A stretch of 64,000 bases of DNA from a virus. The translations under genes and the position numbers were made by a program. The notes under the pieces were generated by a model that saw nothing but the letters and a program-made list of their open reading frames with translations, was not told the origin of the DNA and made no database searches. Below are positions 22,621-60,214 of this stretch, piece after piece. Position 1 is the stretch's first letter. The number at the start of each line of letters is the position of its first letter. The stretch spans positions 32,001 to 96,000 of IMG/VR virus record IMGVR_UViG_3300027749_000051; one strand, written 5' to 3'.

Positions 22621-24411
22621 ATGGCAAAAGATATTCTAATTGTACCTAGTAATAGTATTTCACAAACTTCCGATAGAATACCCTATATTAATTTTATTAA
22701 TAATGCGGGTAGTACTCCAATCGCTTTAAAAGTCTTATCAGGCGCAAAAATAACATTCTCTTCTTCAACACAAGCAGACATATTAGTAATAGATCCATCT
22801 AACCTATTGATTTCAGTAGGCTATACTCTTAATGTCCGAAGTTATTTTGCGATTAATGGGGTTCAAATTATTAATGGAACATTAAATTGGGTTGGTCCTA
22901 CTACGAATATTGCTGGTGCACAAGGGGCTCAAGGAACTGCAGGTACGACTGGAGCACAGGGTAATGTTGGAACTGCAGGAGCCCAAGGAGCTGCTAGTAC
23001 AACTACGGGAGCACAAGGGGCTCAAGGAAATACGGGAACTACAGGAACACAAGGATCGATTGGGGCACAAGGAAATACTGGAACTGCGGGATCACAAGGC
23101 GCCACGGGTAATACTGGAGCACAAGGGTCAACAGGAAATATCGGAACCACGGGGCCACAAGGCGCCCAAGGACCTAAAGGGAATCAAGGAGCTCAGGGCG
23201 CTACAGGAACTACGGGATCACAAGGAGCTACAGGAAATACTGGAGCACAAGGATCAACAGGTAATACGGGAACTGCGGGACCACAAGGAGCGACAGGTAA
23301 TACTGGTGCACAAGGGGCAAAAGGTAATACAGGAACTACTGGACCACAAGGGGCACAAGGAAATACTGGATCACAAGGTGCCACAGGAAATACTGGTGTT
23401 GCAGGATCTCAAGGAGCTCAAGGAACTAAAGGACCTCAAGGCGCCACCGGAACTACGGGATCTCAAGGTGCTACTGGAACTACGGGATCTCCTGGACCAA
23501 CAGGCGCTACTGGAACTGCAGGATCTCCTGGACCGACAGGGTCACAAGGGGCGACAGGAACAGCGGGAACTACCGGACCACAAGGAGCACAAGGGTCTCA
23601 AGGGTCTACGGGAACAAAAGGTCCTCAAGGCGCCACAGGAAATGCTGGAGGAACTGGACCAGCCGGACCAACAGGGGCAACAGGAACTAAAGGTCCACAA
23701 GGGGCGACAGGAACTGCTGGAACTGCGGGACCAACAGGATCACAAGGAGCAAAAGGACCTCAGGGATCAACAGGTGCTCAAGGTGCGGTTGGGCCATCAT
23801 CAATTACTTGTTATTCTAATACCACTATGTGGGCGGGTACTTCTAAATGTACCTTCACTTGCCAGTACGCTAAAGGAACGATTGTTTACCCATATCAACA
23901 AACTAGTTATTTGAATTATGCTGCGAATATGTATAGAACAGCAACTAATTGTAGTAATAGTACTTGTGATTTTGCTAGTTGGTGGGCAACTGCAACTGAT
24001 TATAATGATAATACATATTGTCAAGTTCCGAATACAACATGTGGATATTCTACTAGTACCACATTATGTACAAGTTATTCTGATATTAGATTAAAAGGCG
24101 GTATTGAAACCATTGAAAATGCTTTAAATAAGATAATGCAAATCGAAGCGGTTGAATATGATTGGAATAAAAATTTAGATCCTGGATTATATGAATATTT
24201 TGAAAAACAAAAAAAATTACATACAATTGGACTTATAGCACAAAATGTTAGAATGATTTTTCCTGAGGTTGTAAGAATGAATCTTGACGGATATTACTCA
24301 ATCGACTACAAGAAGCTAAATGCTGTCTTAGTGGAAGGTATCAAACAACAGGTAGTATTTGTTGATGAAATTGATAAAGAATTAGATTATTTAGAGTTAA
24401 CTATTAATTAA
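22621..24411 (+). CDS. collagen-like tail/virion fibre 1 with Cys-rich domain and peptidase S74 chaperone
   Basis: About 295 aa Gly-X-Y, then Cys-rich segment, then SDIRLK. Confidence 0.88.
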
Positions 24412-25940
24412 TGGCGAACATTATAATATATCCACAAGGTAACGTAGGTAATACGGATCCTAATATTGTTTTTAACGATGGAACAAATCTATTGGCTCTT
24501 AACACTAAGGATCAATATCTATCGTTATCTTCCACGACGGTATCGGCTGGAGTACAAATTGGGGCACAGAATGTTATTGTTTCAGGCGCTACGATTACAG
24601 GACCTACTTCGGGATTATATGTTGGGGCATCTCAAACAAAATGGGTTGATGCTTCAGGTGTGTGGGTTGGATCAACAACAGGTATTAAAGGACCTCAAGG
24701 TGCAATAGGAAATTCAGGAACTGCGGGATCACAAGGAGCTCAAGGTACAGGACCTGGAGCACAAGGAGCTCAAGGTATTGCTGGATCACAAGGGGCGCAA
24801 GGTGCTCAGGGGGCGACAGGTACAGGACAACAAGGTGCTCAGGGCGCACAAGGAAATATTGGTGTTGCGGGATCTCAAGGTGCTCAAGGTACAGGTGTTG
24901 GTGCACAAGGCGCTCAAGGTAATGTTGGCCCTGATGGGGCACAAGGTGCTGGTAGTAAAAGTGCTGGAGCTGTAGGTGCTCAAGGGAATATTGGAATAAC
25001 AGGGGCACAAGGTGCTCAAGGTGCTAATACGGGAGCACAAGGTGCTCAAGGTAACGTAGGACCTACAGGAGCACAAGGTGCTCAAGGCGCCAACACAGGA
25101 GCACAAGGGGCTCAAGGTAATGTGGGTCCGATATCATCCACAGGTGCTCAAGGTCCTACGGGAGCTCAAGGAGCCCAAGGTAATGTGGGAATTGCGGGGG
25201 CACAAGGGAATATAAGTGTAACACAGGGGGCTCAAGGAAATGTGGGACCTACAGGGGCACAAGGGAATATTGGAACTGCTGGATCGACAACTGGTGCGCA
25301 AGGTGCTACAGGTACTGCAGGCGGACCAGGATCTACAGGTGCACAAGGAAACCCAGGTACCAATGGAGGGGCAGGATCGCCAGGGGCAACAGGTAATGCT
25401 GGAAGCGCTGGAGCAACAACTGGAGCACAAGGAGCGACAGGAAGTTTAGGACCTCCAGGTGCAACAACAGGGGCTCAAGGTGCTGTTGGACCGACAGGTG
25501 CGCAAGGTAACCCAGGAACTGCGGGTTCACCTGGACCAACCGGGGCTCAGGGTGCCACAGGATCACAAGGAGCACAAGGTTCTCAAGGTCCTTCTTCAGA
25601 TAGAAGGTTAAAGGATAATATTAAAAAACTTGAAAATGTTTTAGATAAAACAAAACAGATTCAAGGTGTTCAATTTGAATGGAATCACGATCATCCAAAA
25701 ATTAAACAAAAAGAATCTATTGTTTTTCAATCGGCATTTTCTGGAGATGCAATTGGATTTATAGCCCAAGAATTGGAGAAAGTATTACCTGAAGTTGTCT
25801 TTACAGATGAAGATCAGTTTAAATCTGTTGAATATGGACAAATGGTTAGCTTGGGTATTGGAAGTATCCAAGAAGTACAGACTCGTATTGATTCAATAAA
25901 TGAGAGAATAAACAAATTAAAAAAAGTAATCGGTGGCTGA
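24411..25940 (+). CDS. collagen-like fibre 2 with peptidase S74 chaperone
   Basis: About 305 aa interrupted Gly-X-Y; SDRRLK directly after. Confidence 0.88.
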   Translation: MANIIIYPQGNVGNTDPNIVFNDGTNLLALNTKDQYLSLSSTTVSAGVQIGAQNVIVSGATITGPTSGLYVGASQTKWVDASGVWVGSTTGIKGPQGAIGNSGTAGSQGAQGTGPGAQGAQGIAGSQGAQGAQGATGTGQQGAQGAQGNIGVAGSQGAQGTGVGAQGAQGNVGPDGAQGAGSKSAGAVGAQGNIGITGAQGAQGANTGAQGAQGNVGPTGAQGAQGANTGAQGAQGNVGPISSTGAQGPTGAQGAQGNVGIAGAQGNISVTQGAQGNVGPTGAQGNIGTAGSTTGAQGATGTAGGPGSTGAQGNPGTNGGAGSPGATGNAGSAGATTGAQGATGSLGPPGATTGAQGAVGPTGAQGNPGTAGSPGPTGAQGATGSQGAQGSQGPSSDRRLKDNIKKLENVLDKTKQIQGVQFEWNHDHPKIKQKESIVFQSAFSGDAIGFIAQELEKVLPEVVFTDEDQFKSVEYGQMVSLGIGSIQEVQTRIDSINERINKLKKVIGG

Positions 25941-27402
25941 AAATATTATAATTACCCCATCAGGTGCAACCATAAATTTTTATGATTCGGCATCCACATT
26001 GACGACATTGGTTATTACATCAGGTGCGCTAAATTTTAAAAGATCTGGTACGACTTATCTTGCGGTGGATAATACTTATCCGAACTTTAGGACTAATGGT
26101 GGTTCAAATCTATGGGTTAAAAATACTTTAATTAATGACGCTGGAACCTTAATCACAAATAGTGGGTGGGGTGGAACAGCACAGCCAACAGGAGCGCAAG
26201 GCGCTCAAGGTACCGTAGGATCACAAGGTGCTCAAGGTACTGCAGGTTCACAAGGTGCTCAAGGTACTGCGGGACCAACAGGTGCACAAGGAACAACAGG
26301 AGCACAAGGTTCAGTTGGCGCTCAAGGTTCTCAAGGATCACAGGGAGCTCAAGGGACAACTGGAGCACAAGGTTCTCAAGGGGGTCAAGGTGCACAAGGT
26401 TCTCAGGGATCACAAGGAACAACTGGCGCTCAAGGTTCTCAAGGAGGACAAGGTGCTCAAGGTGCCCAAGGATCACAAGGAACAACTGGATCACAAGGTG
26501 CTCAAGGAGGACAAGGCGCTCAAGGAGCTCAAGGATCGCAAGGAACAACTGGATCACAAGGTGCTCAAGGAGGACAAGGTGCTCAAGGAGCTCAGGGATC
26601 TCAAGGGGCTGCTAATGGGGTACAAGGTGCTCAAGGTGGCCAAGGAGCTCAAGGAGCTCAAGGATCGCAAGGAACAACTGGATCTCAAGGTGCTCAGGGA
26701 GGACAAGGTTCTCAAGGTGCTCAGGGAGGACAAGGTTCTCAAGGAGCACAAGGATCGACAGGAGGACAAGGAGCACAAGGATCACAAGGAAGTGGTGGAG
26801 GTAGCGGACCTCAAGGTGCTCAAGGAGCCCAAGGATCTGCAGCAGGAAGTGGACCAACTGGAGCACAAGGAGCACAAGGTGCCGCGGGTGGCCAAGGATC
26901 ACAGGGTGCGCAAGGATCAACGGGACCGGCAGGTCCTCAAGGATCACAAGGTGCTGCGGGTGGTCAAGGATCACAAGGAGCTCAAGGATCTGCTGCAGGT
27001 GCGGGACCAACAGGTGCTCAAGGTGCTACAGGATCACAAGGAGCTCAAGGAGCCACAGGATCACCAGGTCCATCAGATGCACGACTCAAACGTAATATTA
27101 GATCAATTGAGAATCCATTATCTAAAGTTAAGAAGATTAGAGGAGTTTCTTTTATATGGAATGATAAGAGTGTAAATGAATCATCCGAGAGAGATATTGG
27201 ATTTATTGCTCAGGAACTTCAATATGTGTTACCTGAATTGGTGTTTAAAAATAATAAAGAAAATTCGTTCTACCAAGTTAAATATGGAGATATTATTGCA
27301 CTTTGTTTGGAGGCAATTAAAGAACAATCTGAATTACTTATACTTAGGGAAGAAAGATTGGGAAGAATAGAAACAAGAGCAAAAGAAAAGGGACTAATTT
27401 AA
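25933..27402 (+). CDS. collagen-like fibre 3 with peptidase S74 chaperone
   Basis: GTG start overlapping previous gene; about 295 aa GAQ/GSQ; SDARLK. Confidence 0.88.
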   Translation: MAENIIITPSGATINFYDSASTLTTLVITSGALNFKRSGTTYLAVDNTYPNFRTNGGSNLWVKNTLINDAGTLITNSGWGGTAQPTGAQGAQGTVGSQGAQGTAGSQGAQGTAGPTGAQGTTGAQGSVGAQGSQGSQGAQGTTGAQGSQGGQGAQGSQGSQGTTGAQGSQGGQGAQGAQGSQGTTGSQGAQGGQGAQGAQGSQGTTGSQGAQGGQGAQGAQGSQGAANGVQGAQGGQGAQGAQGSQGTTGSQGAQGGQGSQGAQGGQGSQGAQGSTGGQGAQGSQGSGGGSGPQGAQGAQGSAAGSGPTGAQGAQGAAGGQGSQGAQGSTGPAGPQGSQGAAGGQGSQGAQGSAAGAGPTGAQGATGSQGAQGATGSPGPSDARLKRNIRSIENPLSKVKKIRGVSFIWNDKSVNESSERDIGFIAQELQYVLPELVFKNNKENSFYQVKYGDIIALCLEAIKEQSELLILREERLGRIETRAKEKGLI

Positions 27403-47068: not shown

Positions 47069-48436
47069 ATGAAAAAACTACAATTATTATTTCTTGCATT
47101 GTTTTTTGGTATTGTGTTTAATTTAAGTGCACAAGAACAAACAACAAGTGAAAAGTTAACCGAACTAAATGACAGGGTTAATGGACTATCTGAAAGGATT
47201 GCAACTAACGAATCTGACTTATCTAAATTAACTAAGATTAAGGTTTCAGGTTACATTCAATCTCAGTATCAAAACTTTGAAACTCCCTCCTTACTTTCTA
47301 AATCTCAAAACTATTTTTCACTTAGAAGAGTTAGAGTAAAATTTACTTATGAAGCGCTTGATGGTGTAAAATTTGTTTTACAACCTGATTTTGCTCCGGG
47401 TGGTCTTTCCTTAAAAGACGCTTATGTGGTAGTAAATGACCATTGGACTAAATCGTTTAGTTTATGGGGTGGAAAGTTCAACAGACCAAATTATGAAGTT
47501 GAATATTCGTCAAGTCAGAGAGAATTACCTGAGCGTTCATTAGTTATTAGAACATTATATCCTGGTGAGCGTGCGATAGGTACAAAATTAGAATTTAATC
47601 CTACAACTATACCACTTCATGTTCAGTTTGCCGTTCTAAATGGTAGTGATGGTTTAACTATTGCAAACAATGCTGGTGTTAATCTTAATGCTACTGACAA
47701 TATTGACTATGATAATTTCAAAGATATTATGGCTCGTATAACATACAACCTTAGTCTTGGAAGTTTTGGTGGATTAGATTTCGGTGGACATGGATATTTT
47801 GGATCGTTAAAATCAAATTCTACTAGAACATTAAATGGTGACTATTCAACACTAACTAATACTAAAATTGGAAATTCAATTGGTAGAAATTGGTTAGGTG
47901 GAGAATTTCAATTATTTGCTGATGTGTTAGGTGGTTTATCGGTTAAAGGAGAATATATCGCTGGTAAAAATGCGACTATCGGATATGCTGCGGTTCCTGC
48001 CGCAGGTAGTGTTGCAGCAATCCCTGAGGTATCAAATTTCCAAAATAACTTCAATGGTGGATATCTTTATTTCATTAAAAACTTAGGTAAGAGAAATCAG
48101 ATTGCATTTAGATATGATTACTATGACCCTAATACAAATATATCAGGAAAAGATGTTACAATAATAGGATTTACAAGTACTGATGCAACCTTGAAATCAA
48201 AGTTAAGTGGTAAGGGAGATCTTGCAACAACTACATATGGATTTGCGTTACATCATTATTATGATGATAATATTAGAATCACAATTGGGTATGATATTGT
48301 TCAAAATGAAAAAGTTGGAACTGTTGGGAAAGTTGTTGATAACTATACCACATCTACAGGAGCACCAATTAAAGCTGATTGGAGTAATATTATTAACCAG
48401 AATGTATTAACAATAAGAATTCAAGCTAAATTTTAA
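47069..48436 (+). CDS. phosphate-selective (OprO/OprP-like) outer-membrane porin
   Basis: Signal peptide ending LSA-Q, coiled plug, IKVSGYIQ..LRRVRVKF, LKDAY, terminal Phe; adjacent to pstS. Confidence 0.8.
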   Translation: MKKLQLLFLALFFGIVFNLSAQEQTTSEKLTELNDRVNGLSERIATNESDLSKLTKIKVSGYIQSQYQNFETPSLLSKSQNYFSLRRVRVKFTYEALDGVKFVLQPDFAPGGLSLKDAYVVVNDHWTKSFSLWGGKFNRPNYEVEYSSSQRELPERSLVIRTLYPGERAIGTKLEFNPTTIPLHVQFAVLNGSDGLTIANNAGVNLNATDNIDYDNFKDIMARITYNLSLGSFGGLDFGGHGYFGSLKSNSTRTLNGDYSTLTNTKIGNSIGRNWLGGEFQLFADVLGGLSVKGEYIAGKNATIGYAAVPAAGSVAAIPEVSNFQNNFNGGYLYFIKNLGKRNQIAFRYDYYDPNTNISGKDVTIIGFTSTDATLKSKLSGKGDLATTTYGFALHHYYDDNIRITIGYDIVQNEKVGTVGKVVDNYTTSTGAPIKADWSNIINQNVLTIRIQAKF

Positions 48437-51212: not shown

Positions 51213-52622
51213 TTAATATCGATATTCGTCTTTTTTGTAAGGACCATTAACATCGACTCCAAGATATTCTGACTGATCTGGTGTTAAGGTTGTTAACTTG
51301 ATTCCTAATTGACCAATATGTAATCTTGCCACTTCTTCATCCAAATGTTTTGGTAATGTGTGAACACCTACAGGGTAATCATTTGTCGCCAATTCAATTT
51401 GAGCTAAGACTTGGTTGGTGAATGAGGTACTCATTACAAAAGATGGGTGACCTGTTGCACACCCTAAGTTAACTAATCTACCTTCAGCCAATAGATAGAT
51501 TGAGTGTCCATCTTCGAAAGTATATTTATCAACCTGTGGTTTGATATTTGTTCTGATAACAGTTTTATCAGAATGTAATTTTTCTACTTGGATCTCATTA
51601 TCGAAATGTCCGATATTACAAACAATTGCCTCATCCTTCATTTGTGACATGTGTTCCAATGTAATAACATCTTTATTACCTGTTGTGGTTACATAGATAT
51701 TACCAACAGATAATGAATCTTCAATTGTCTGTACTTGGAACCCTTCCATTGATGCTTGTAATGCGCAGATGGGGTCAATCTCAGTTATGATAACTCGTGC
51801 TCCATAACTCTTCATAGACTTCGCACATCCTTTGCCAACATCACCATATCCTGCAATTACAACAACTTTACCAGCGATCATAACATCTGTTGCTCGTTTG
51901 ATTCCATCAGCAAGTGATTCACGACAACCATATAAGTTATCGAATTTGGATTTGGTTACAGAGTCATTAACATTAAATGCTGGGAACAATAGTTTATCGT
52001 TTTCATACATTTGATATAATCTATGTACACCTGTTGTTGTTTCTTCAGATACTCCAATAATTCCTTCAACCGCATTTTCCCATCGTTCATTGTTAGATGA
52101 TAGAATTTCTTTTAGAATATGGTTAAACTCATATTCGTCTTCACCATTGGTTGGAAGATCTAAGATGTTTGGATCTTTTTCAGCATCATACCCACGATGG
52201 ATCATTAATGTTGCGTCGCCACCATCATCAACAATTAAGTTTGGCCCTTCACCATTAGGAAATTCCAATGCTTTAGCGGTACACCACCAATATTCTTCTA
52301 ATGTTTCACCTTTCCATGCAAAAACAGGAATACCTGCTTCAGCAATGGCTGCGGCAGCATGATCTTGTGTTGAGAAAATATTACAACTACACCATCTAAC
52401 ATCTGCTCCAAGTTCTTTTAATGTTTCAATTAACACTGCAGTTTGGATTGTCATATGTAATGACCCAGTAATTTTGTGTCCTGATAAAGGTTTAGTTTTA
52501 CCATATTTCTCACGAAGAGACATAAGTCCTGGCATTTCTTTTTCTGCAATCTTAATTTCTTTTCTTCCGTATTCTGCAAGATTAATATCTGCTACGGCAT
52601 AGTCTGTAAATTCCATATTCAT
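51213..52622 (-). CDS. ahcY: S-adenosylhomocysteine hydrolase
   Basis: [50 protein letters not shown]. Confidence 0.97.
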
Positions 52623-53858: not shown

Positions 53859-54408
53859 TTAATTAAGTATATTATCTACTTTAACAGGCCATGGGCAATA
53901 ATCTGCTTTTGCTGTATTTACCTTATGATTCAGTACATCGTCCAATATTTTGTAGTTCTCAACCAATGATTTCATAGATGTTTCTCCATTATGGTTAAGT
54001 ACATCTGCCGTCGGGTTTACGAATCCGCAATAACCGATCTTAGTTGCATCTACCTTATGATTAAGGATGTCTTCCTCTTTAGTGTAACCTGTTGTGTTTC
54101 GCCAAGTAGATATTGTTACTTTAGGGTTAAGGATGTCTTTCACCACTGGTGTTTGCGAATCGTTTGTAAAAAAGGATTTACTTACCTTATGATTAAGGAT
54201 GTTTTCCACCTTAAGATGAGTAAGAAAATCTATACCATTAGATGTACTTACCTTATGATTAAGGATGACTTCCACCGATGCGATGGCTGGACCAACACCA
54301 GTATCGGATGTGTTTACCTTATAATTAAGGATGTCTTCCACCAATGCAGAGAAAGCATTTGAAAGAAGAACAGATGTGCCTACCTTATGATTAAGGATGT
54401 CTTCCACC
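53859..54408 (-). CRISPR. CRISPR-like in-frame array: 8 full repeats plus a truncated one, 8 unique 30-nt spacers
   Basis: First repeat GGTGGAAGACATCCTTAATCATAAGGTAGGCACATC (54373-54408); strict 66-nt period; degenerates distally; no cas gene in window. Confidence 0.55.
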
Positions 54409-54638
54409 ATAGAAGTTAGAAATGGTTTATACTCATTTTGTTCCAATGAGAATAGTTGGAAAAAATTATTGAAAAACTCCCATCTCCACCATAATGTTCC
54501 TGATTTTTCAAATTCAAAATACCAGTACTTTTCTTTTCTATCAATAAACCATATCGCATTATTATATGGGATTATCTCCACATGTTTCAGATCGTTATAT
54601 AGTTTATCTAATATAATTTTTTTTAATCTCTCGTTCAT
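53859..54638 (-). CDS. array-gene paralog 2 (WWRW domain plus nine 22-aa units)
   Basis: Same N-domain; longest array. Confidence 0.88.
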   Translation of the reverse strand: MNERLKKIILDKLYNDLKHVEIIPYNNAIWFIDRKEKYWYFEFEKSGTLWWRWEFFNNFFQLFSLEQNEYKPFLTSMVEDILNHKVGTSVLLSNAFSALVEDILNYKVNTSDTGVGPAIASVEVILNHKVSTSNGIDFLTHLKVENILNHKVSKSFFTNDSQTPVVKDILNPKVTISTWRNTTGYTKEEDILNHKVDATKIGYCGFVNPTADVLNHNGETSMKSLVENYKILDDVLNHKVNTAKADYCPWPVKVDNILN

Positions 54639-54641
54639 AGT

Positions 54642-55109
54642 TTATATTTTATTTACCTTACGATTTAAGATTCTTTCTACCAATCCTTCAGGTGGAACTT
54701 CATCAAAGAATGTTGTTTTTACCTTACGATTTAAGATGTCTTCCACCCAGCCTTTGGCTTTACCTATGAAATTATTTGATGTATCTACCTTACGATTTAA
54801 GATGTCTTCCACCGGGTCGATCGATTGATATTCCCCATTGAAAGATGTATCTACCTTACGATTTAAGATGTCTTCCACCATATCTCGTATAAGTGGCTCA
54901 TACTCATCTCGTTCCAATGAAAACAGGTAGAAAAAATTATTGAAAAACTCCCATCTCCACCACAGAGTTCCATTTTTATTCAATTTAAAGTACCAGTATT
55001 TTTCATTTGGATCTATTGCCCATATATTGCCATCATCGACAATAATTTCGGAGCCCTTCATATCGTTCAAAAGTTTATCAAATATTATTTTCTTTATCCT
55101 GTCGTTCAT
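54642..55109 (-). CDS. array-gene paralog 3 (WWRW domain plus four 22-aa units)
   Basis: Same N-domain. Confidence 0.88.
   Translation of the reverse strand: MNDRIKKIIFDKLLNDMKGSEIIVDDGNIWAIDPNEKYWYFKLNKNGTLWWRWEFFNNFFYLFSLERDEYEPLIRDMVEDILNRKVDTSFNGEYQSIDPVEDILNRKVDTSNNFIGKAKGWVEDILNRKVKTTFFDEVPPEGLVERILNRKVNKI
54646..54879 (-). CRISPR. CRISPR-like in-frame array: 4 repeats, 3 spacers
   Basis: Two identical GGTGGAAGACATCTTAAATCGTAAGGTAGATACATC (54844, 54778), third ends AAAACAAC, fourth degenerate. Confidence 0.6.
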
Positions 55110-55128
55110 ATCATCTAAATTATCTTGG

Positions 55129-55159
55129 CAAAGATATTAAAAAAGATTAATACAACAAA
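55129..55159 (-). promoter_or_regulatory. Bacteroidota-type promoter driving the array-gene cluster
   Basis: Minus strand TTTG (55156-55159), 19 nt, TATCTTTG (55129-55136). Confidence 0.75.
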
Positions 55160-55173
55160 ATATTTTCAAGGAT

Positions 55174-55205
55174 ATTGTGTGATTGAATTAATTTTATTAT
55201 CTTTG
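55174..55205 (+). promoter_or_regulatory. divergent Bacteroidota-type promoter
   Basis: ATTG, 20 nt, TATCTTTG. Confidence 0.65.
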
Positions 55206-55245
55206 TGGAATAGAAAGTAAGTTATTAAATTAAAAGTTAAATAAT

Positions 55246-55407
55246 ATGTGGGTTAAGAAGAAGATTTTGGATCATTGGACTTATATTGAAAGAAAGACCA
55301 AAGTATTTGTTAGACGGGATTATCGTAATAACACCGTTGTGATTAATTTTATGGAAGGTGGTCCTTGTACTTTATATACTTATAAAGGTGAATGGATTGC
55401 GGGTTAA
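55246..55407 (+). CDS. 53-aa protein (not in ORF track)
   Basis: MWVKKKILDHWTYIERK...; first ORF after promoter. Confidence 0.55.
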   Translation: MWVKKKILDHWTYIERKTKVFVRRDYRNNTVVINFMEGGPCTLYTYKGEWIAG

Positions 55408-55428
55408 AAAAGAATTGGAGGAAAAGAA

Positions 55429-55980
55429 ATGAGCGGAGGACACTTTGATTACAAACAAAACGAAATCGGTTATATTGCCGATGAGATAGAAAGCACCATT
55501 GAAAGAAATGGTAAGGAAAAGACCCAAGAGGAATTAAGAGATGAAGGATGGTGTAATTCTGAATTTCATAATCAATATCCTGAAGATAAATTTCACTATA
55601 AATATCCGGATGATGTTATTGAGAAATTTAAAGAGGCTGTTAATTTATTAAGAAAAGCACAAATCTATGCTCACAGAATTGATAGGTTATTATCAGGAGA
55701 TGATGGAGAAGAATCATTTATTAAACGATTAAATGATGAATTGGATAAAATTGAGATTCCACTACCAAATGACGCGTTAATAGAGGCGGCACAACGATAT
55801 AAGGAAAATGTTAGTGCAGGAGCGCTTACATCATCTAGTAATGGTTTAACATTGTCACCATCAACTATTAGTGGAATATGGAGTAGTAGCACTACTACTT
55901 GGAAAGGTGGTTATGTCACAAATAACTTTGAATCTTATTATATGGGTGAGAATGGTAATAAACATATAAATAATAAATGA
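55429..55980 (+). CDS. hypothetical phage protein
   Basis: MSGGHFDY..DWLLSGDDGE-like motif (DRLLSGDDGEESF). Confidence 0.65.
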   Translation: MSGGHFDYKQNEIGYIADEIESTIERNGKEKTQEELRDEGWCNSEFHNQYPEDKFHYKYPDDVIEKFKEAVNLLRKAQIYAHRIDRLLSGDDGEESFIKRLNDELDKIEIPLPNDALIEAAQRYKENVSAGALTSSSNGLTLSPSTISGIWSSSTTTWKGGYVTNNFESYYMGENGNKHINNK

Positions 55981-56435
55981 AAACTCAGAAAGAATATCCT
56001 GAGACACACTTCAGGAGCAGTGAGGCGGAAAGAATTCACAATGAGGGTTATGAACTGATGCTCATTAATAATACTTTACCTTTTAACAACAGACCAGTTC
56101 TCGGAGATGCAAAACACGGATTTGTTAGTATGAGTTGGGATGCTTGGCATAAGAATAGGGATAGTATGAGACTTAAACGACTTACCAATCCTCAACTCCT
56201 CAACGGAGAAATTAAGAATGATAGAATCGTTTCATTATATAAAGGATGTAAGGTTCATCTAATGAATAAGGGTGGGACATACATTGTTAAATCATATGAT
56301 AATGAGGTGGCTGTGATCACTTGTCAGAGATGGGTTAACCAGAAAGAATGGGGACAAAGATACAGAGATACCTTAACAGTTCCAAGAAGTGAAATAAAAT
56401 GTCATTATGGGGGAACAAAATACGGCAAGTTGTAA
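55977..56435 (+). CDS. hypothetical protein
   Basis: Coupled ORF. Confidence 0.6.
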   Translation: MKTQKEYPETHFRSSEAERIHNEGYELMLINNTLPFNNRPVLGDAKHGFVSMSWDAWHKNRDSMRLKRLTNPQLLNGEIKNDRIVSLYKGCKVHLMNKGGTYIVKSYDNEVAVITCQRWVNQKEWGQRYRDTLTVPRSEIKCHYGGTKYGKL

Positions 56436-56479
56436 TATTTTTATTATATTTGTATAATTAATCATTAAATCTTTTAGAT

Positions 56480-56731
56480 ATGACCGAATCGGACAGTGCT
56501 ATTTTAGAAACACTTATTACAAAGTTATTAGAAGGAGTTGAATTAGAATCAAAAACAGAAACCGCGATTGGATATCACGGAAGTTCACAGGGAGAAGAGA
56601 TTACTTATACGATACATTATAATCCGTATCGTAGGACTTGGGAACCAAAAGAGTTTGCCTTAATGGGGCATGTGTTCTCAAAAATTAAACCAATAATCTT
56701 AAAAATTATAAATAAAGATGGGAATGTTTGA
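56480..56731 (+). CDS. hypothetical protein
   Basis: Follows TATATTTG at 56445-56452. Confidence 0.55.
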   Translation: MTESDSAILETLITKLLEGVELESKTETAIGYHGSSQGEEITYTIHYNPYRRTWEPKEFALMGHVFSKIKPIILKIINKDGNV

Positions 56732-57101
56732 TACACTTTACATCAATATAGACAAATTGCCTATATCTGATAAGGAAAAAGAAACTATCGGCAATGATAC
56801 CGAATGGCAGACCAAATCTTTTGATTGCGTCTTAACGGAGATATACATAACCGATCAGAACGAATTAAAGATCAATCGATGGAATTATGAGGATGTTCCA
56901 TTGGAAGACAGACCAAATCCACTTAAAGAAGGAATACTTGGATTTATGGGAAGCCTGAGAAGAGCCAATGAGAGATTGGAAATAATGTCTTATAATGGAT
57001 ATGTTAACTTTTATGGTAAAGGAGGAGATGATTGGTATGAGTTTAATGCCAAGTTTATTGATGGACTACTTCAAGGGATTGAGGGTGGAAAAATAGTTTA
57101 A
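56718..57101 (+). CDS. hypothetical phage protein
   Basis: MGMFD..WQTKSFDC..W.EF.A.F..G pattern. Confidence 0.65.
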   Translation: MGMFDTLYINIDKLPISDKEKETIGNDTEWQTKSFDCVLTEIYITDQNELKINRWNYEDVPLEDRPNPLKEGILGFMGSLRRANERLEIMSYNGYVNFYGKGGDDWYEFNAKFIDGLLQGIEGGKIV

Positions 57102-57106
57102 GGTTG

Positions 57107-57268
57107 ATGAAGCATAGTTTTTGGAGGATATGGGCAAAATCATTAGGGGAGAAAACAGGAGAGACCGATGAGGAAGCAGATAGAGTTGCGATGGTTAGAA
57201 CAATAATCTTAATGGTATACATTATAACCAATTTAGTTATAATCGCAGGAATAATTAGACACTGGTAA
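57107..57268 (+). CDS. 53-aa conserved small phage membrane protein (not in ORF track)
   Basis: WRIWAKSLGEK..ADRVA..RT..ITN...AGIIRHW. Confidence 0.7.
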   Translation: MKHSFWRIWAKSLGEKTGETDEEADRVAMVRTIILMVYIITNLVIIAGIIRHW

Positions 57269-57300
57269 TTAACCCTCACCCAAAAGGTGGGGGTTAATTA
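57268..57300. terminator. bidirectional terminator of CCTCACC/GGTGGGG family
   Basis: AACCCTCACC-caaaa-GGTGGGGGTT between convergent genes. Confidence 0.75.
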
Positions 57301-57561
57301 TGAGATAACTTTAACTGGCAACTTATATCCTTTTTTGAACCAAGCGGATATAACAATAAGGATTACATTATCAATGTAACCTTTTCCAAACTTCTTATTC
57401 AACTCGGACCTAACTATATCACTACAATACATTGTTGAGGTCTTAATATCAAATAAGAAATACTCGTTATGCCAGGTCTGCTCAACCTTATCATAGTAAA
57501 GGTATGGGAACCCAAATTTATCATCTATGAATTTAACTATGTGTTTTTCTATTGTTGTCAT
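57298..57561 (-). CDS. hypothetical protein
   Basis: 87-aa ORF. Confidence 0.55.
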   Translation of the reverse strand: MTTIEKHIVKFIDDKFGFPYLYYDKVEQTWHNEYFLFDIKTSTMYCSDIVRSELNKKFGKGYIDNVILIVISAWFKKGYKLPVKVIS

Positions 57562-57588
57562 ATATACAAATATAATATATTTATTAAT

Positions 57589-58110
57589 ATGAACTTACAA
57601 GAAAACATACACAGGATTAAGGAAATGATGGGGATTAATGAAAAGCATGATCTCCTGAATAAACCTATCAAAGATATTATAGACCAAGTGGGAGGATATG
57701 GAACAGGATTCAACACCGATGAAGACGCCATAGAAGAAATAGAATATGTGGTATCAAGTGATTTTCCTGAAGGTCTGAATAACATTCCAACTAAAGTAAT
57801 CTTATATAGAGTTATATTATTGGAAGATGGTAAATCCATTAACGAGGATCAGGTTGGGGAACATTTCATTTCGGATACAAGACATATAGATAGATCGTTC
57901 TTGGAAAAGATAGATATATGGGACAATTGGGATGCGGACAATTCCAAGTTATGGTTACTACAATGTGAAACGGATGGGGATAATATAGATATAGAAAGAA
58001 CATTAGGTAATAGAGTTCAATATCCTCGTGAGAATGAATTCACCCTGAAGAACGATAAAAAGATTAGGTTGATAAAGAAAAAGATACTTAATAAAGAACA
58101 GCTTAGATGA
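57589..58110 (+). CDS. MNLQENI-leader protein, ADP-ribosyltransferase-like fold
   Basis: Start 57589 after TATTTAT; LYR, HFIS, ENE pattern. Confidence 0.5.
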   Translation: MNLQENIHRIKEMMGINEKHDLLNKPIKDIIDQVGGYGTGFNTDEDAIEEIEYVVSSDFPEGLNNIPTKVILYRVILLEDGKSINEDQVGEHFISDTRHIDRSFLEKIDIWDNWDADNSKLWLLQCETDGDNIDIERTLGNRVQYPRENEFTLKNDKKIRLIKKKILNKEQLR

Positions 58111-58637
58111 AATACATAATTACTGAGAGACAATATAGAGTGATATCCGAAGAAGTTAATCCTCGCATCAAAGAAATTATCTTCAATAAGTTATTGAATG
58201 ATATGAAGGGTGTTGAGATTATTGAAGATAATGGTAGCATATGGGCAATAGATCCTGATGAGAAATACTGGTACTTTGAGTTGCAAGAAAACGGAACTTT
58301 ATGGTGGAGATGGGGATTTTTCAATAATTTTTTCAAGTTATTTTCAATAGAAAGAAATGAGTTTGAACCACTTATGCGTGAACTGGTGGAAGACATCTTG
58401 AATCGCAAGGTAGTCACATCACTTCTAGTGCAATTCCTTGGTGACCTAATGGTGGAAGACATCTTGAATCGCAAGGTAGTCACATCCCACAGCGGACAGA
58501 TTCACGTCCAAAGCCAGGTGGAAGACATCTTGAATCGCAAGGTAGTCACATCTAGTGGGCATGACCAAAGATTAACAATGTCAATAAAAGACATATTAAA
58601 TCGTAGGAATAAGATAACCAAAGATGAGAACTTTTAA
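58107..58637 (+). CDS. array-gene paralog 4 with added MKYIITE leader
   Basis: Same WWRW N-domain; near-identical segments to paralog 3. Confidence 0.88.
   Translation: MKYIITERQYRVISEEVNPRIKEIIFNKLLNDMKGVEIIEDNGSIWAIDPDEKYWYFELQENGTLWWRWGFFNNFFKLFSIERNEFEPLMRELVEDILNRKVVTSLLVQFLGDLMVEDILNRKVVTSHSGQIHVQSQVEDILNRKVVTSSGHDQRLTMSIKDILNRRNKITKDENF
58385..58618 (+). CRISPR. CRISPR-like in-frame array: three identical 36-nt repeats plus degenerate fourth, three 30-nt spacers
   Basis: GGTGGAAGACATCTTGAATCGCAAGGTAGTCACATC at 58385, 58451, 58517. Confidence 0.65.
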
Positions 58638-58640
58638 GAT

Positions 58641-58958
58641 ATGAAACTACAAGAGAACATAGACAGAATTAAACAAGTGATGGGAGTTATCAATGAAGAT
58701 AAACCATCAATCCATATTTTACGGAGATTACCTCAAATAGAGAGGGCATTAAATCAGACATTATATTATTTATCTCCTTGTGAATATGATGATGTGGAAT
58801 ATTATACTGAACATGTATTACACCAACTTAGGGAATATTTTGAAGATTATGAAGAAGAAGAAGAGGTTGAACCTTTTGCGGCAACAAATTATGTTGCAGA
58901 ATATTTATCATCTGAAATAGAAGAATATTACGATGACCGTAAAACAGAATGTGAATAA
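58641..58958 (+). CDS. MKLQENI-leader acidic protein
   Basis: Shared leader. Confidence 0.65.
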   Translation: MKLQENIDRIKQVMGVINEDKPSIHILRRLPQIERALNQTLYYLSPCEYDDVEYYTEHVLHQLREYFEDYEEEEEVEPFAATNYVAEYLSSEIEEYYDDRKTECE

Positions 58959-59022
58959 TAAAGAATATTCACTTAGACATAAACTATACAATATCAAATA
59001 AATCTATACAATATTTTTTATA

Positions 59023-59712
59023 ATGAAACTACAAGAGAATATAGATAGGATAAAACAAGTGATGGGGATTATTACAGAATCACGACCAGGATTTTGTTTA
59101 CCGAAAGATTATACTCCAGGAACAAAATATGGAAGGGATGAGTTAGCTAAGATGTTTGTATGTTTTACAAAAGATCCGAAGAAGTTTCCATTATTGGCGG
59201 TTAAGGAATGGTTATTTCCACAATTACCTGGTGGAGGATTTACGCCCCAAGATCCAATGAGTATGAGTTATGGTCAACCATATACTTTTACTATGGAAAG
59301 AATGGCAAAAGTAGAAGATAAAAATACAAGAAATATCACAGTCGGAATAAAAACCATTGACCCAACTCAATTACCTGATGAAACAAAAAGATGGTTTAGT
59401 ATAAAACAAAAATCTCCAGGATTTCAAGATAGATTTGACTATCAGATAAATAAGATAAGGGAGAATGACTATGATACTACAGTTATAACACCTCAAGATG
59501 AGCCTATGGTTTTTGAGGTTATAAATAGAAAGTTATATATTCAAGAAGGGTGGCATAGGTTAATGGCGATCTTAATGTTATTGGAGAAGGGGGAAATAAT
59601 TCCTGATCAGGCTAAAGTATATGCTGTAACTGTATTTAGATCTCCCGATTTTAAGTTAAAAATAGTGGATAAACCAGAAGGCCTTTTTGAAAACATAAGA
59701 AATTACCAATAA
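59023..59712 (+). CDS. MKLQENI-leader protein with ParB/Srx-like motif
   Basis: LYIQEGWHRLMA resembles IxDGxHR. Confidence 0.55.
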   Translation: MKLQENIDRIKQVMGIITESRPGFCLPKDYTPGTKYGRDELAKMFVCFTKDPKKFPLLAVKEWLFPQLPGGGFTPQDPMSMSYGQPYTFTMERMAKVEDKNTRNITVGIKTIDPTQLPDETKRWFSIKQKSPGFQDRFDYQINKIRENDYDTTVITPQDEPMVFEVINRKLYIQEGWHRLMAILMLLEKGEIIPDQAKVYAVTVFRSPDFKLKIVDKPEGLFENIRNYQ

Positions 59713-59734
59713 TAACCAAGATAGATTTATAACA

Positions 59735-60214
59735 ATGAAACTACAAGAGAATATAGATAGGATAAAACAAGTGATGGGGATTAATGAAACCTTTGACGCA
59801 GGGGTGGAACCAACTCTTAGAGACACCTATAACGAAGATGGGGCAAAAGTATATTCATACATCCTTCCGTCAAAGAAAGATGAAAAAGATTACATCATCA
59901 ACTTAAAGTTCTATAAGGAGTTTAAGGACCCGAAAATCAAAGATACATATAAAGATGTTATGGTAATAGATTTTAATCTTGGGGCAGGGACTTATTACAA
60001 TACCAACCTTAATGAAGTATTTTATATCTTTGCTTCAATCAATAAACTTATAGAGAAGTATAAGAAGAAGTTCCAATATCTTATGGGTTATTCAAACAAA
60101 GATAGATTGTCCTTATATAAGAAAGCATTGTCAAGAGCAAATTATTTGGAACTGGTAGATGAGGGATCACATCATATCATATATAAGAACAAAGATTATT
60201 CACGATGGTTCTAA
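59735..60214 (+). CDS. MKLQENI-leader hypothetical protein
   Basis: First 49 nt identical to 59023 gene. Confidence 0.65.
   Translation: MKLQENIDRIKQVMGINETFDAGVEPTLRDTYNEDGAKVYSYILPSKKDEKDYIINLKFYKEFKDPKIKDTYKDVMVIDFNLGAGTYYNTNLNEVFYIFASINKLIEKYKKKFQYLMGYSNKDRLSLYKKALSRANYLELVDEGSHHIIYKNKDYSRWF

Follow-up and report, generated by a model that had tools for sequence, protein, structure and literature searches.

A repeat of the type VI-B CRISPR kind in a phage gene family, with units probably added by CRISPR-type integration

The type VI-B CRISPR array of Flavobacterium columnare ATCC 49512 consists of a 36-nucleotide (nt) repeat and 30-nt spacers, and a related repeat is found in F. branchiophilum (PMC5395568, Table 4). 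The F. columnare array is transcribed from the leader into the array, its new spacers measure 28-32 bp (mostly 30), and it takes phage and host spacers via the II-C Cas1 in trans, despite the different leader and repeat (PMC8092290). Herein, we describe a gene family in the 125-kb IMG/VR virus record IMGVR_UViG_3300027749_000051, rated 42% complete, of which bases 32001-96000 (64,000 nt; the window) were analyzed. Four open reading frames (ORFs) in the window have a common N-terminal domain (N-domain) of approximately 90 residues, followed by an in-frame array of 36-nt repeats and unrelated 30-nt spacers with an exact 66-nt period. The sequence comparisons argue that the repeat is of the type VI-B (Cas13b) kind and that CRISPR-type integration, with the Cas1-Cas2 of the host acting in trans, has probably added the units.

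The phage arrays resemble the VI-B arrays of F. columnare and F. covae in the 36-nt repeat with G first and C last, the mostly 30-nt spacers, the variable upstream end, the decayed distal repeats, and the possible presence of host-chromosome spacers. Unlike those arrays, they lie inside ORFs, always in frame behind one protein domain, and they lack stops, 29- or 31-nt spacers, a recognizable leader, and a nearby cas13b. The repeat itself differs by a weaker hairpin and by G instead of T at position 2, where a Val codon requires G. The in trans acquisition in F. columnare is comparable in that a foreign adaptation module adds spacers to an array that has no Cas1-Cas2 of its own, tolerating differences in leader and repeat. 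However, the array there is chromosomal and non-coding, whereas here the proposed integration would take place within a gene of the infecting phage.

Phage-borne copies of host CRISPR repeats have been described as RNA anti-CRISPRs (Racrs), viral solitary repeat units, and virus-borne mini-arrays (PMC10651486). Racrs are small non-coding RNAs in intergenic DNA and none has been reported for type VI; ORFs were masked in the survey, and translated repeat loci would therefore have escaped it (PMC10651486). Unlike Racrs, the repeats described here form arrays of up to nine units, are translated, and have spacers that are turned over. Of the features of a Racr, namely repeat mimicry in a small non-coding RNA, binding of Cas proteins, and inhibition of immunity, the mimicry is seen here. 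Diversity-generating retroelements, in which a reverse transcriptase is combined with a template repeat that departs from the variable repeat at adenines, and cyanobactin precursors resemble the phage arrays in having targeted hypervariability in an otherwise conserved gene. Unlike the former, the phage arrays show whole-unit insertion of unrelated DNA instead of mutagenic copying, the cassettes are unrelated to one another, and the phage records contain no template repeat and no reverse transcriptase (PF00078 had no match in five related phage records). CRISPR arrays are usually viewed as non-coding memory, and pipelines mask ORFs or drop ORF-located arrays as protein repeats. Here, a CRISPR repeat of a known class is an obligatory translated part of a phage gene family with eight copies in 125 kb of this phage.

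Repeat edges and likeness to type VI-B repeats

Relatives were gathered from IMG/VR in two ways, by protein and by repeat pattern, and all arrays were cut into units. In paralog P4 (58107-58637, + strand), the N-domain (58107-58384) is followed in frame by the array (58385-58637). The first repeat (58385-58420) has identical copies at 58451-58486 and 58517-58552, the fourth (58583-58618) is decayed, and the three 30-nt spacers between them (58421-58450, 58487-58516, and 58553-58582) are unrelated. An earlier sequence-only reading had described the three identical repeats and their unrelated spacers and had also noted G at repeat position 1 in the 12 best-preserved repeats, and all 12 codons that end there were found as listed: CTG, ATG, and CAG in P4; ATG, CCG, TGG, and TTG in P3; and ATG, TTG, TCG, AAG, and GTG in P2.

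The sequence-only reading had suggested testing, over many homologous arrays, whether identity drops sharply at positions 1 and 36 of the repeat, and it did. Among 132 unique units, position 0 carried 0.17 bits of information and position 1 carried 1.62 (G in 125/132); the content remained high through position 36 (1.94; C in 131/132) and fell to 0.16 at position 37. An extended set of 185 unique units from 50 array ORFs of this phage and its IMG/VR relatives had G in 178/185 at position 1, C in 179/185 at position 36, and A48/C37/T76/G24 at position 37, the bases flanking the repeat being unconstrained. G at position 1 was not at the background level, as G occupied the other spacer wobble positions in 7-21% of units and accounted for 14.2% of third positions genome-wide. 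The codon before the repeat ended in G in 138 of the 144 repeats after the first, and in 116/122 when ATG and TGG, which have no synonymous alternative, were set aside. Paralog P1 was an exception, as its decayed repeats have T, A, T, and G at position 1.

Position 1 falls on the wobble base of the final cassette codon, and position 37 on that of the final repeat codon. A third base that could vary is thus fixed, and the one belonging to a conserved residue varies freely. The edges are therefore set on the DNA, one base out of codon register, and did not follow codon boundaries. Codon choice within the repeat also differed from that of the genome: GTG was used for the first Val in 92% of units vs. 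12% genome-wide, and AAG for Lys in 90% vs. 31%. For the same gene pairs, the synonymous difference was 0.39 in the first repeat vs. 0.74 in the N-domain.

A pattern scan of one genome per prokaryote species showed that F. columnare (L038) and F. covae (L042) have arrays of the published VI-B repeat, and the L042 array lies directly downstream of cas13b fragments (NF038190) on the same strand. Aligned to this repeat without gaps, with register and orientation unchanged, the phage consensus matched at 24/36 positions; the best variant reached 25/36. No composition-preserving shuffle of the repeat among 200,000 reached 24 (maximum 22). The mean identity was 22.0 at offset 0 and 7-14 at other offsets, and the reverse complement scored 17. 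The phage repeat was matched at 11-14/36 by the II-C and type V repeats of these bacteria and at 22-23/36 by the F. branchiophilum repeat. The phage repeat thus has the length and ends of the VI-B class (36 nt, G-T-T-G ... C-A-A-C, with a conserved 3' half) apart from position 2, and the metagenomic VI-B arrays L085-L089, a third variant of the class, have end motifs in common with it. The phage repeats fold into a two-stem hairpin as real repeats do, with outer and inner stems in the same places; the majority of pairs do not vary, and mismatches predominate at pairs 2-35 and 13-25. In F. covae AL-02-36, several stop codons break up the cas13b beside the VI-B array into four or more ORFs (L042 931-4609; also G001:C1:3185305-3188564); this is either a pseudogene or a gene with assembly errors, and the array beside it still has 10 intact repeats.

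Unit turnover, translation, and a host-derived insert

As in CRISPR arrays generally, constant 36-nt repeats alternate with unique spacers of near-constant length, here unrelated and 30 nt long. The unit spacing in the phage arrays was 66 nt in 157/166 pairs and always a multiple of 3; of 88 pairs in real VI-B arrays, 75 were spaced at 66 nt and 12 at 65 or 67 nt. In a side observation, unit 4-5 of the arrays L011, L012, and L014 carries a 6-nt in-frame insertion in the repeat, and the resulting 72-nt unit is conserved in these three related phages; the repeat length therefore changes only in steps of three.

Close relatives differed by whole units: distal cassettes were common to many arrays, and those adjoining the N-domain differed. 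The distal repeats were decayed. Paralog P2 (53859-54638, - strand) has 8-9 units spaced by exactly 66 nt between 54373-54408 and 53911-53946, and its repeats are increasingly decayed toward the 3' end. This polarity is that of a CRISPR array with the N-domain at the leader's place; the pattern of polarized growth and a decayed terminal repeat also fits a constrained C-terminus. P0005 and P0013 have near-identical N-domains with different cassette sets, and cassette turnover is therefore fast.

The arrays are translated, and, by codon-level comparison, they are under selection both for an open frame and on the cassette peptides. None of 155 unique phage spacers had an in-frame stop, vs. 36 of 102 (35%) spacers from real VI-B arrays when read in the equivalent frame; in the five remaining frames, 30-77 of 115 phage spacers had one. 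Among related cassettes, the variable columns were distributed 15:5:4 over codon positions 3:1:2, and pN/pS was 0.14 in this small sample. The N-domain is under purifying selection (dN/dS, the ratio of nonsynonymous to synonymous substitution rates, of 0.15-0.4). The composition of the cassettes resembles that of translated random DNA.

One spacer has a convincing source. When the arrays of P1-P3 were compared with 401 sampled Bacteroidota genomes, P2 spacer 2 (54277-54306, - strand) matched a nuoL-type gene at 29/30 positions in G949 (L118) and at 28/30 in G745 and G909; against G004, the identity was 94% over 33 nt. G949 is a Flavobacterium, as it belongs to the same genus sample as F. covae. 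The E-value was 9.3e-7 per genome, or approximately 4e-4 over the 401 genomes, and it leaves out of account that the homology ends just where the spacer does. By its PF00361 and PF00662 domains, the matched ORF is a NuoL-type subunit of NADH:quinone oxidoreductase. The spacer is a copy of the antisense strand, and the RNA of the phage gene is therefore complementary to the nuoL-type mRNA.

A second candidate protospacer, for P4 spacer 1, was judged to be a chance match, as it consisted of 23-24/30 matches to three unrelated genes in three genomes. The other array queries against the Bacteroidota samples gave nothing or chance-level matches in the AT-rich N-domain, and the INPHARED phages gave only matches with E = 0.5, outside the spacers. 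No self-derived spacers were found in the 125-kb record, the related loci, or the five related phage genomes; apparent self-matches in L016 proved to be a truncated paralogous array and not protospacers.

Proposed mechanism and its alternatives

The sequence-only reading had taken the 36-bp unit for a target-site duplication, here one that accompanies the insertion of 30 bp, as opposed to an ordinary protein tandem repeat. This view is supported by four independent results. First, the conservation edges lie at DNA positions 1 and 36, off the codon boundaries. Second, the unit resembles a real direct repeat of the 36/30 CRISPR class in register and orientation. Third, close relatives differ by whole 66-nt units, with distal cassettes in common and N-domain-proximal ones different. 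Finally, one 30-nt insert is a 29/30 copy of a nuoL-type antisense strand whose homology stops at the insert ends. One addition to the earlier wording is needed: the array is also a real, translated protein repeat, and both levels apply.

From these patterns we infer the integrating enzyme, the time and place of integration, and the function. The 36-nt unit would be a VI-B-kind direct repeat that sits in frame in phage genes, its first copy encoding the end of the N-domain. New units would be added beside the N-domain, where a 30-nt DNA piece from the infected cell would be inserted and the 36-nt repeat duplicated; this duplication on integration would be the target-site duplication of the earlier reading. 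The phages have no Cas1, so the enzyme would be that of the host, and the likely candidate is the Cas1-Cas2 module of a Flavobacterium-like host, working in trans as happens with the F. columnare VI-B array, which has no Cas1. Conservation would disregard codon boundaries because the repeat begins with the G of position 1 and ends with the C of position 36. Since 66 nt are 22 codons, an insertion would preserve the frame, and insertions of 29 or 31 nt or with a stop would be lost because the array is translated as a C-terminal tail and the tail matters. Old distal units would then decay at the DNA level and keep the peptide motif.

As to function, our best guess is a fast-diversifying tail of a phage protein, which fits the translation data best of the candidates. 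A mimic of Cas13b CRISPR RNA precursors (pre-crRNA) is another candidate; it fits the nucleotide-level conservation but not the rarity of Cas13b. Where a host has Cas13b, the family mRNA may additionally be bound or cut by it. A sink for the integration machinery of the host is a speculation. A more elaborate version, which we hold only tentatively and consider rather doubtful, is that the phage gene is offered to host spacer integration, so that each event would write a 10-residue cassette and a copy of the 12-residue motif, adaptation would generate viral protein diversity, and the locus would be dual-coded as a pre-crRNA look-alike.

Several observations weigh against CRISPR-type integration. 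The phages carry no Cas13b, Cas1, or reverse transcriptase. NF038190 (cas13b) had no match in this record or in the five related phage records, one of which is rated complete; Cas13b is possibly encoded by the host instead, but it was found in only 1 of 251 sampled Flavobacterium genomes. A non-coding locus with an AT-rich leader was not found either: the arrays are translated, and the DNA upstream of the first repeat encodes a selected domain and is like ordinary coding sequence, unlike the F. columnare leader. The identity to known VI-B repeats is 61-69% and not near-identity, no bacterial repeat closer than 69% was found, and a loose repeat pattern gave only chance single matches in 401 Flavobacteriaceae genomes, apart from F. 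covae. The phage hairpin is weaker than that of real repeats (-4 to -9 vs. -11 to -12 kcal/mol), it shows no clear covariation, and RNAalifold gave no consensus structure. Rfam has no family for the repeat, and its lone CRISPR-DR6 row lay in the N-domain and below the threshold. In the AlphaFold model, a helix of the folded domain is partly encoded by the first repeat, which makes a protein origin of the repeat possible. A convincing source was found for only one of approximately 155 spacers; the others had no protospacer in this record, the five related phage records, approximately 1,000 sampled Bacteroidota genomes, or IMG/VR. By our own reading, the nuoL protospacer does not have the F. columnare protospacer-adjacent motif.

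The conservation of the repeat at the nucleotide level over deep divergence, with edges at the ends of the VI-B repeat, would also be expected of an RNA decoy. In that case, the transcript would mimic Cas13b pre-crRNA and soak up or misload host Cas13b as an array-form RNA anti-CRISPR, and translation would be secondary, for example serving the continued transcription and stability of the long RNA. The orientation of the repeat in the mRNA is that of the array downstream of cas13b, the copies are many (eight genes in 125 kb), and repeat mimicry is established for other types, type VI alone being without an example in a survey that masked ORFs (PMC10651486). Nevertheless, judging from the sequences, we regard a decoy as unlikely. 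Cas13b is rare among the sampled Flavobacterium genomes, the hairpin is weakened, and neither stop-free spacers nor a peptide-level constraint on the cassettes would be needed. In addition, Cas13 has collateral activity, and a spacer complementary to nuoL mRNA would risk turning Cas13b on the infected cell.

The 22-residue unit could instead be an ordinary protein tandem repeat that grows by unequal crossing-over, with 12 residues kept alike by gene conversion and protein selection, 10-residue linkers diverged beyond recognition, and the likeness to Cas13b repeats and the nuoL match both coincidental. It would account for translation and protein-level selection, for the place of the first repeat within the last helix of the folded N-domain, and for a peptide motif that is retained at irregular spacing in decayed arrays; recombination between repeats also yields gains and losses of whole units. 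However, it does not predict that a wobble base able to vary is fixed as G when the third base of the final repeat codon is free, nor does it predict repeat codon choices contrary to genome usage, and it leaves the unrelated 30-nt inserts that lie between identical repeats without a source. Neither the register-specific VI-B match (0/200,000 shuffles) nor the edge-bounded 29/30 match is likely to be due to chance, and we give this alternative little credence. A cassette-type peptide precursor like cyanobactin PatE, with the N-domain as leader, 12-residue recognition repeats, and 10-residue hypervariable cores that are cut out, is very improbable: the layout of a leader, repeated identical flanks, and hypervariable cores of fixed length agrees with it, as do the peptide-level conservation of older cassettes and the DNA-identical flanks around hypervariable cores in cyanobactin genes, but the cassettes look like translated random DNA, one of them is antisense nuoL, no maturation enzymes were found among the neighbours searched, and the out-of-frame DNA edges are unexplained.

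If integration by host Cas1-Cas2 is true, this would be the first spacer acquisition that acts on a gene of a virus and is inherited by it. Hypervariable proteins would then have a new way of arising, and captured DNA would be recorded naturally in an open reading frame. The arrays suggest that a gene can gain new peptide segments through DNA capture in the manner of CRISPR. Two questions on type VI become testable: whether phages mimic its repeats, and how far the II-C adaptation module tolerates foreign repeats.

The gene family and its neighbours

The 125-kb record has eight family genes in total, the four outside the window lying further along. Paralogs P3, P2, and P1 form a run on the - strand that starts with P3 (54642-55109), whose repeats at 54844-54879, 54778-54813, 54712-54747, and 54646-54681 (the last decayed) have 30-nt spacers between them. 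P1 (53327-53857, - strand) has the same N-domain and 4-5 decayed units in which the peptide motif is retained. TAnnTTTG is the Bacteroidota-type -7 promoter consensus, and one such motif lies just upstream of P3 (55129-55136, - strand), with a second copy at 55198-55205 on the + strand. It is a weak lead: the window has 118 matches vs. 94 +/- 9 expected. The nuoL match, the repeat class, and the weak promoter-motif signal point to a Flavobacterium-like host.

A profile of the N-domain found 493 representative clusters, with the domain located at the N-terminus; in 271/369 matches, the motif spacing was 22 residues. All 122 repeat matches in IMG/VR were in frame behind an N-domain. The family occurs in large lake phages and is a widespread phage gene family. 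AlphaFold modelled the N-domain with a pLDDT (predicted local distance difference test) of approximately 80 and the first repeat as part of its last helix; the remaining array had low confidence. The N-domain had no match in Pfam, PHROGs, Foldseek against PDB, VIA-align wide, or ESM Atlas, and a BFVD search returned only the same uncharacterized family. Structure comparison gave no known fold, the best structural Z of 5.0 being within background.

Metagenome relatives P0002, P0003, and P0012 consist of two complete N-domain-plus-array units fused head to tail in one ORF; read-through between neighbouring family genes therefore does occur. Paralog P6 (105206-106069 of the 125-kb record, outside the window; locus L002) has a Lys-/Cys-rich tail of approximately 110 residues after the array, and protein P0025 has the same tail fused behind another N-domain and array. 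Small consecutive ORFs on the + strand (57589-58110, 58641-58958, 59023-59712, and 59735-60214) begin with a near-identical 15-residue N-terminus (M-K-L-Q-E-N-I-x-R-I-K...) and diverge completely after it. A similar extra N-terminal stretch precedes the N-domain in paralogs P4-P6 and P8, which looks like an N-terminal module common to unrelated genes; the module of the small ORFs (57589-60214) had no family match.

By its SbcC/gp46-like nuclease, homing endonuclease, glycosyltransferase, and phosphate-porin-like genes, the record is that of a large tailed phage. Splicing signals within the repeat were considered and ruled out: the SbcC-like, homing endonuclease, and porin genes mark the record as that of a phage, and the spacer ends are not AG. 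Elsewhere in the window, three adjoining ORFs at 22621-27402 have collagen-like Gly-X-Y repeats, a G+C content of 42% vs. 31%, and many overlapping tandem-repeat periods. A full-length S-adenosylhomocysteine hydrolase-like ORF, judged by sequence alone, lies at 51213-52622 (- strand), and a phosphate-selective porin O/P-like ORF (PF07396) at 47069-48436 (+ strand); both are probable host-derived metabolic genes.

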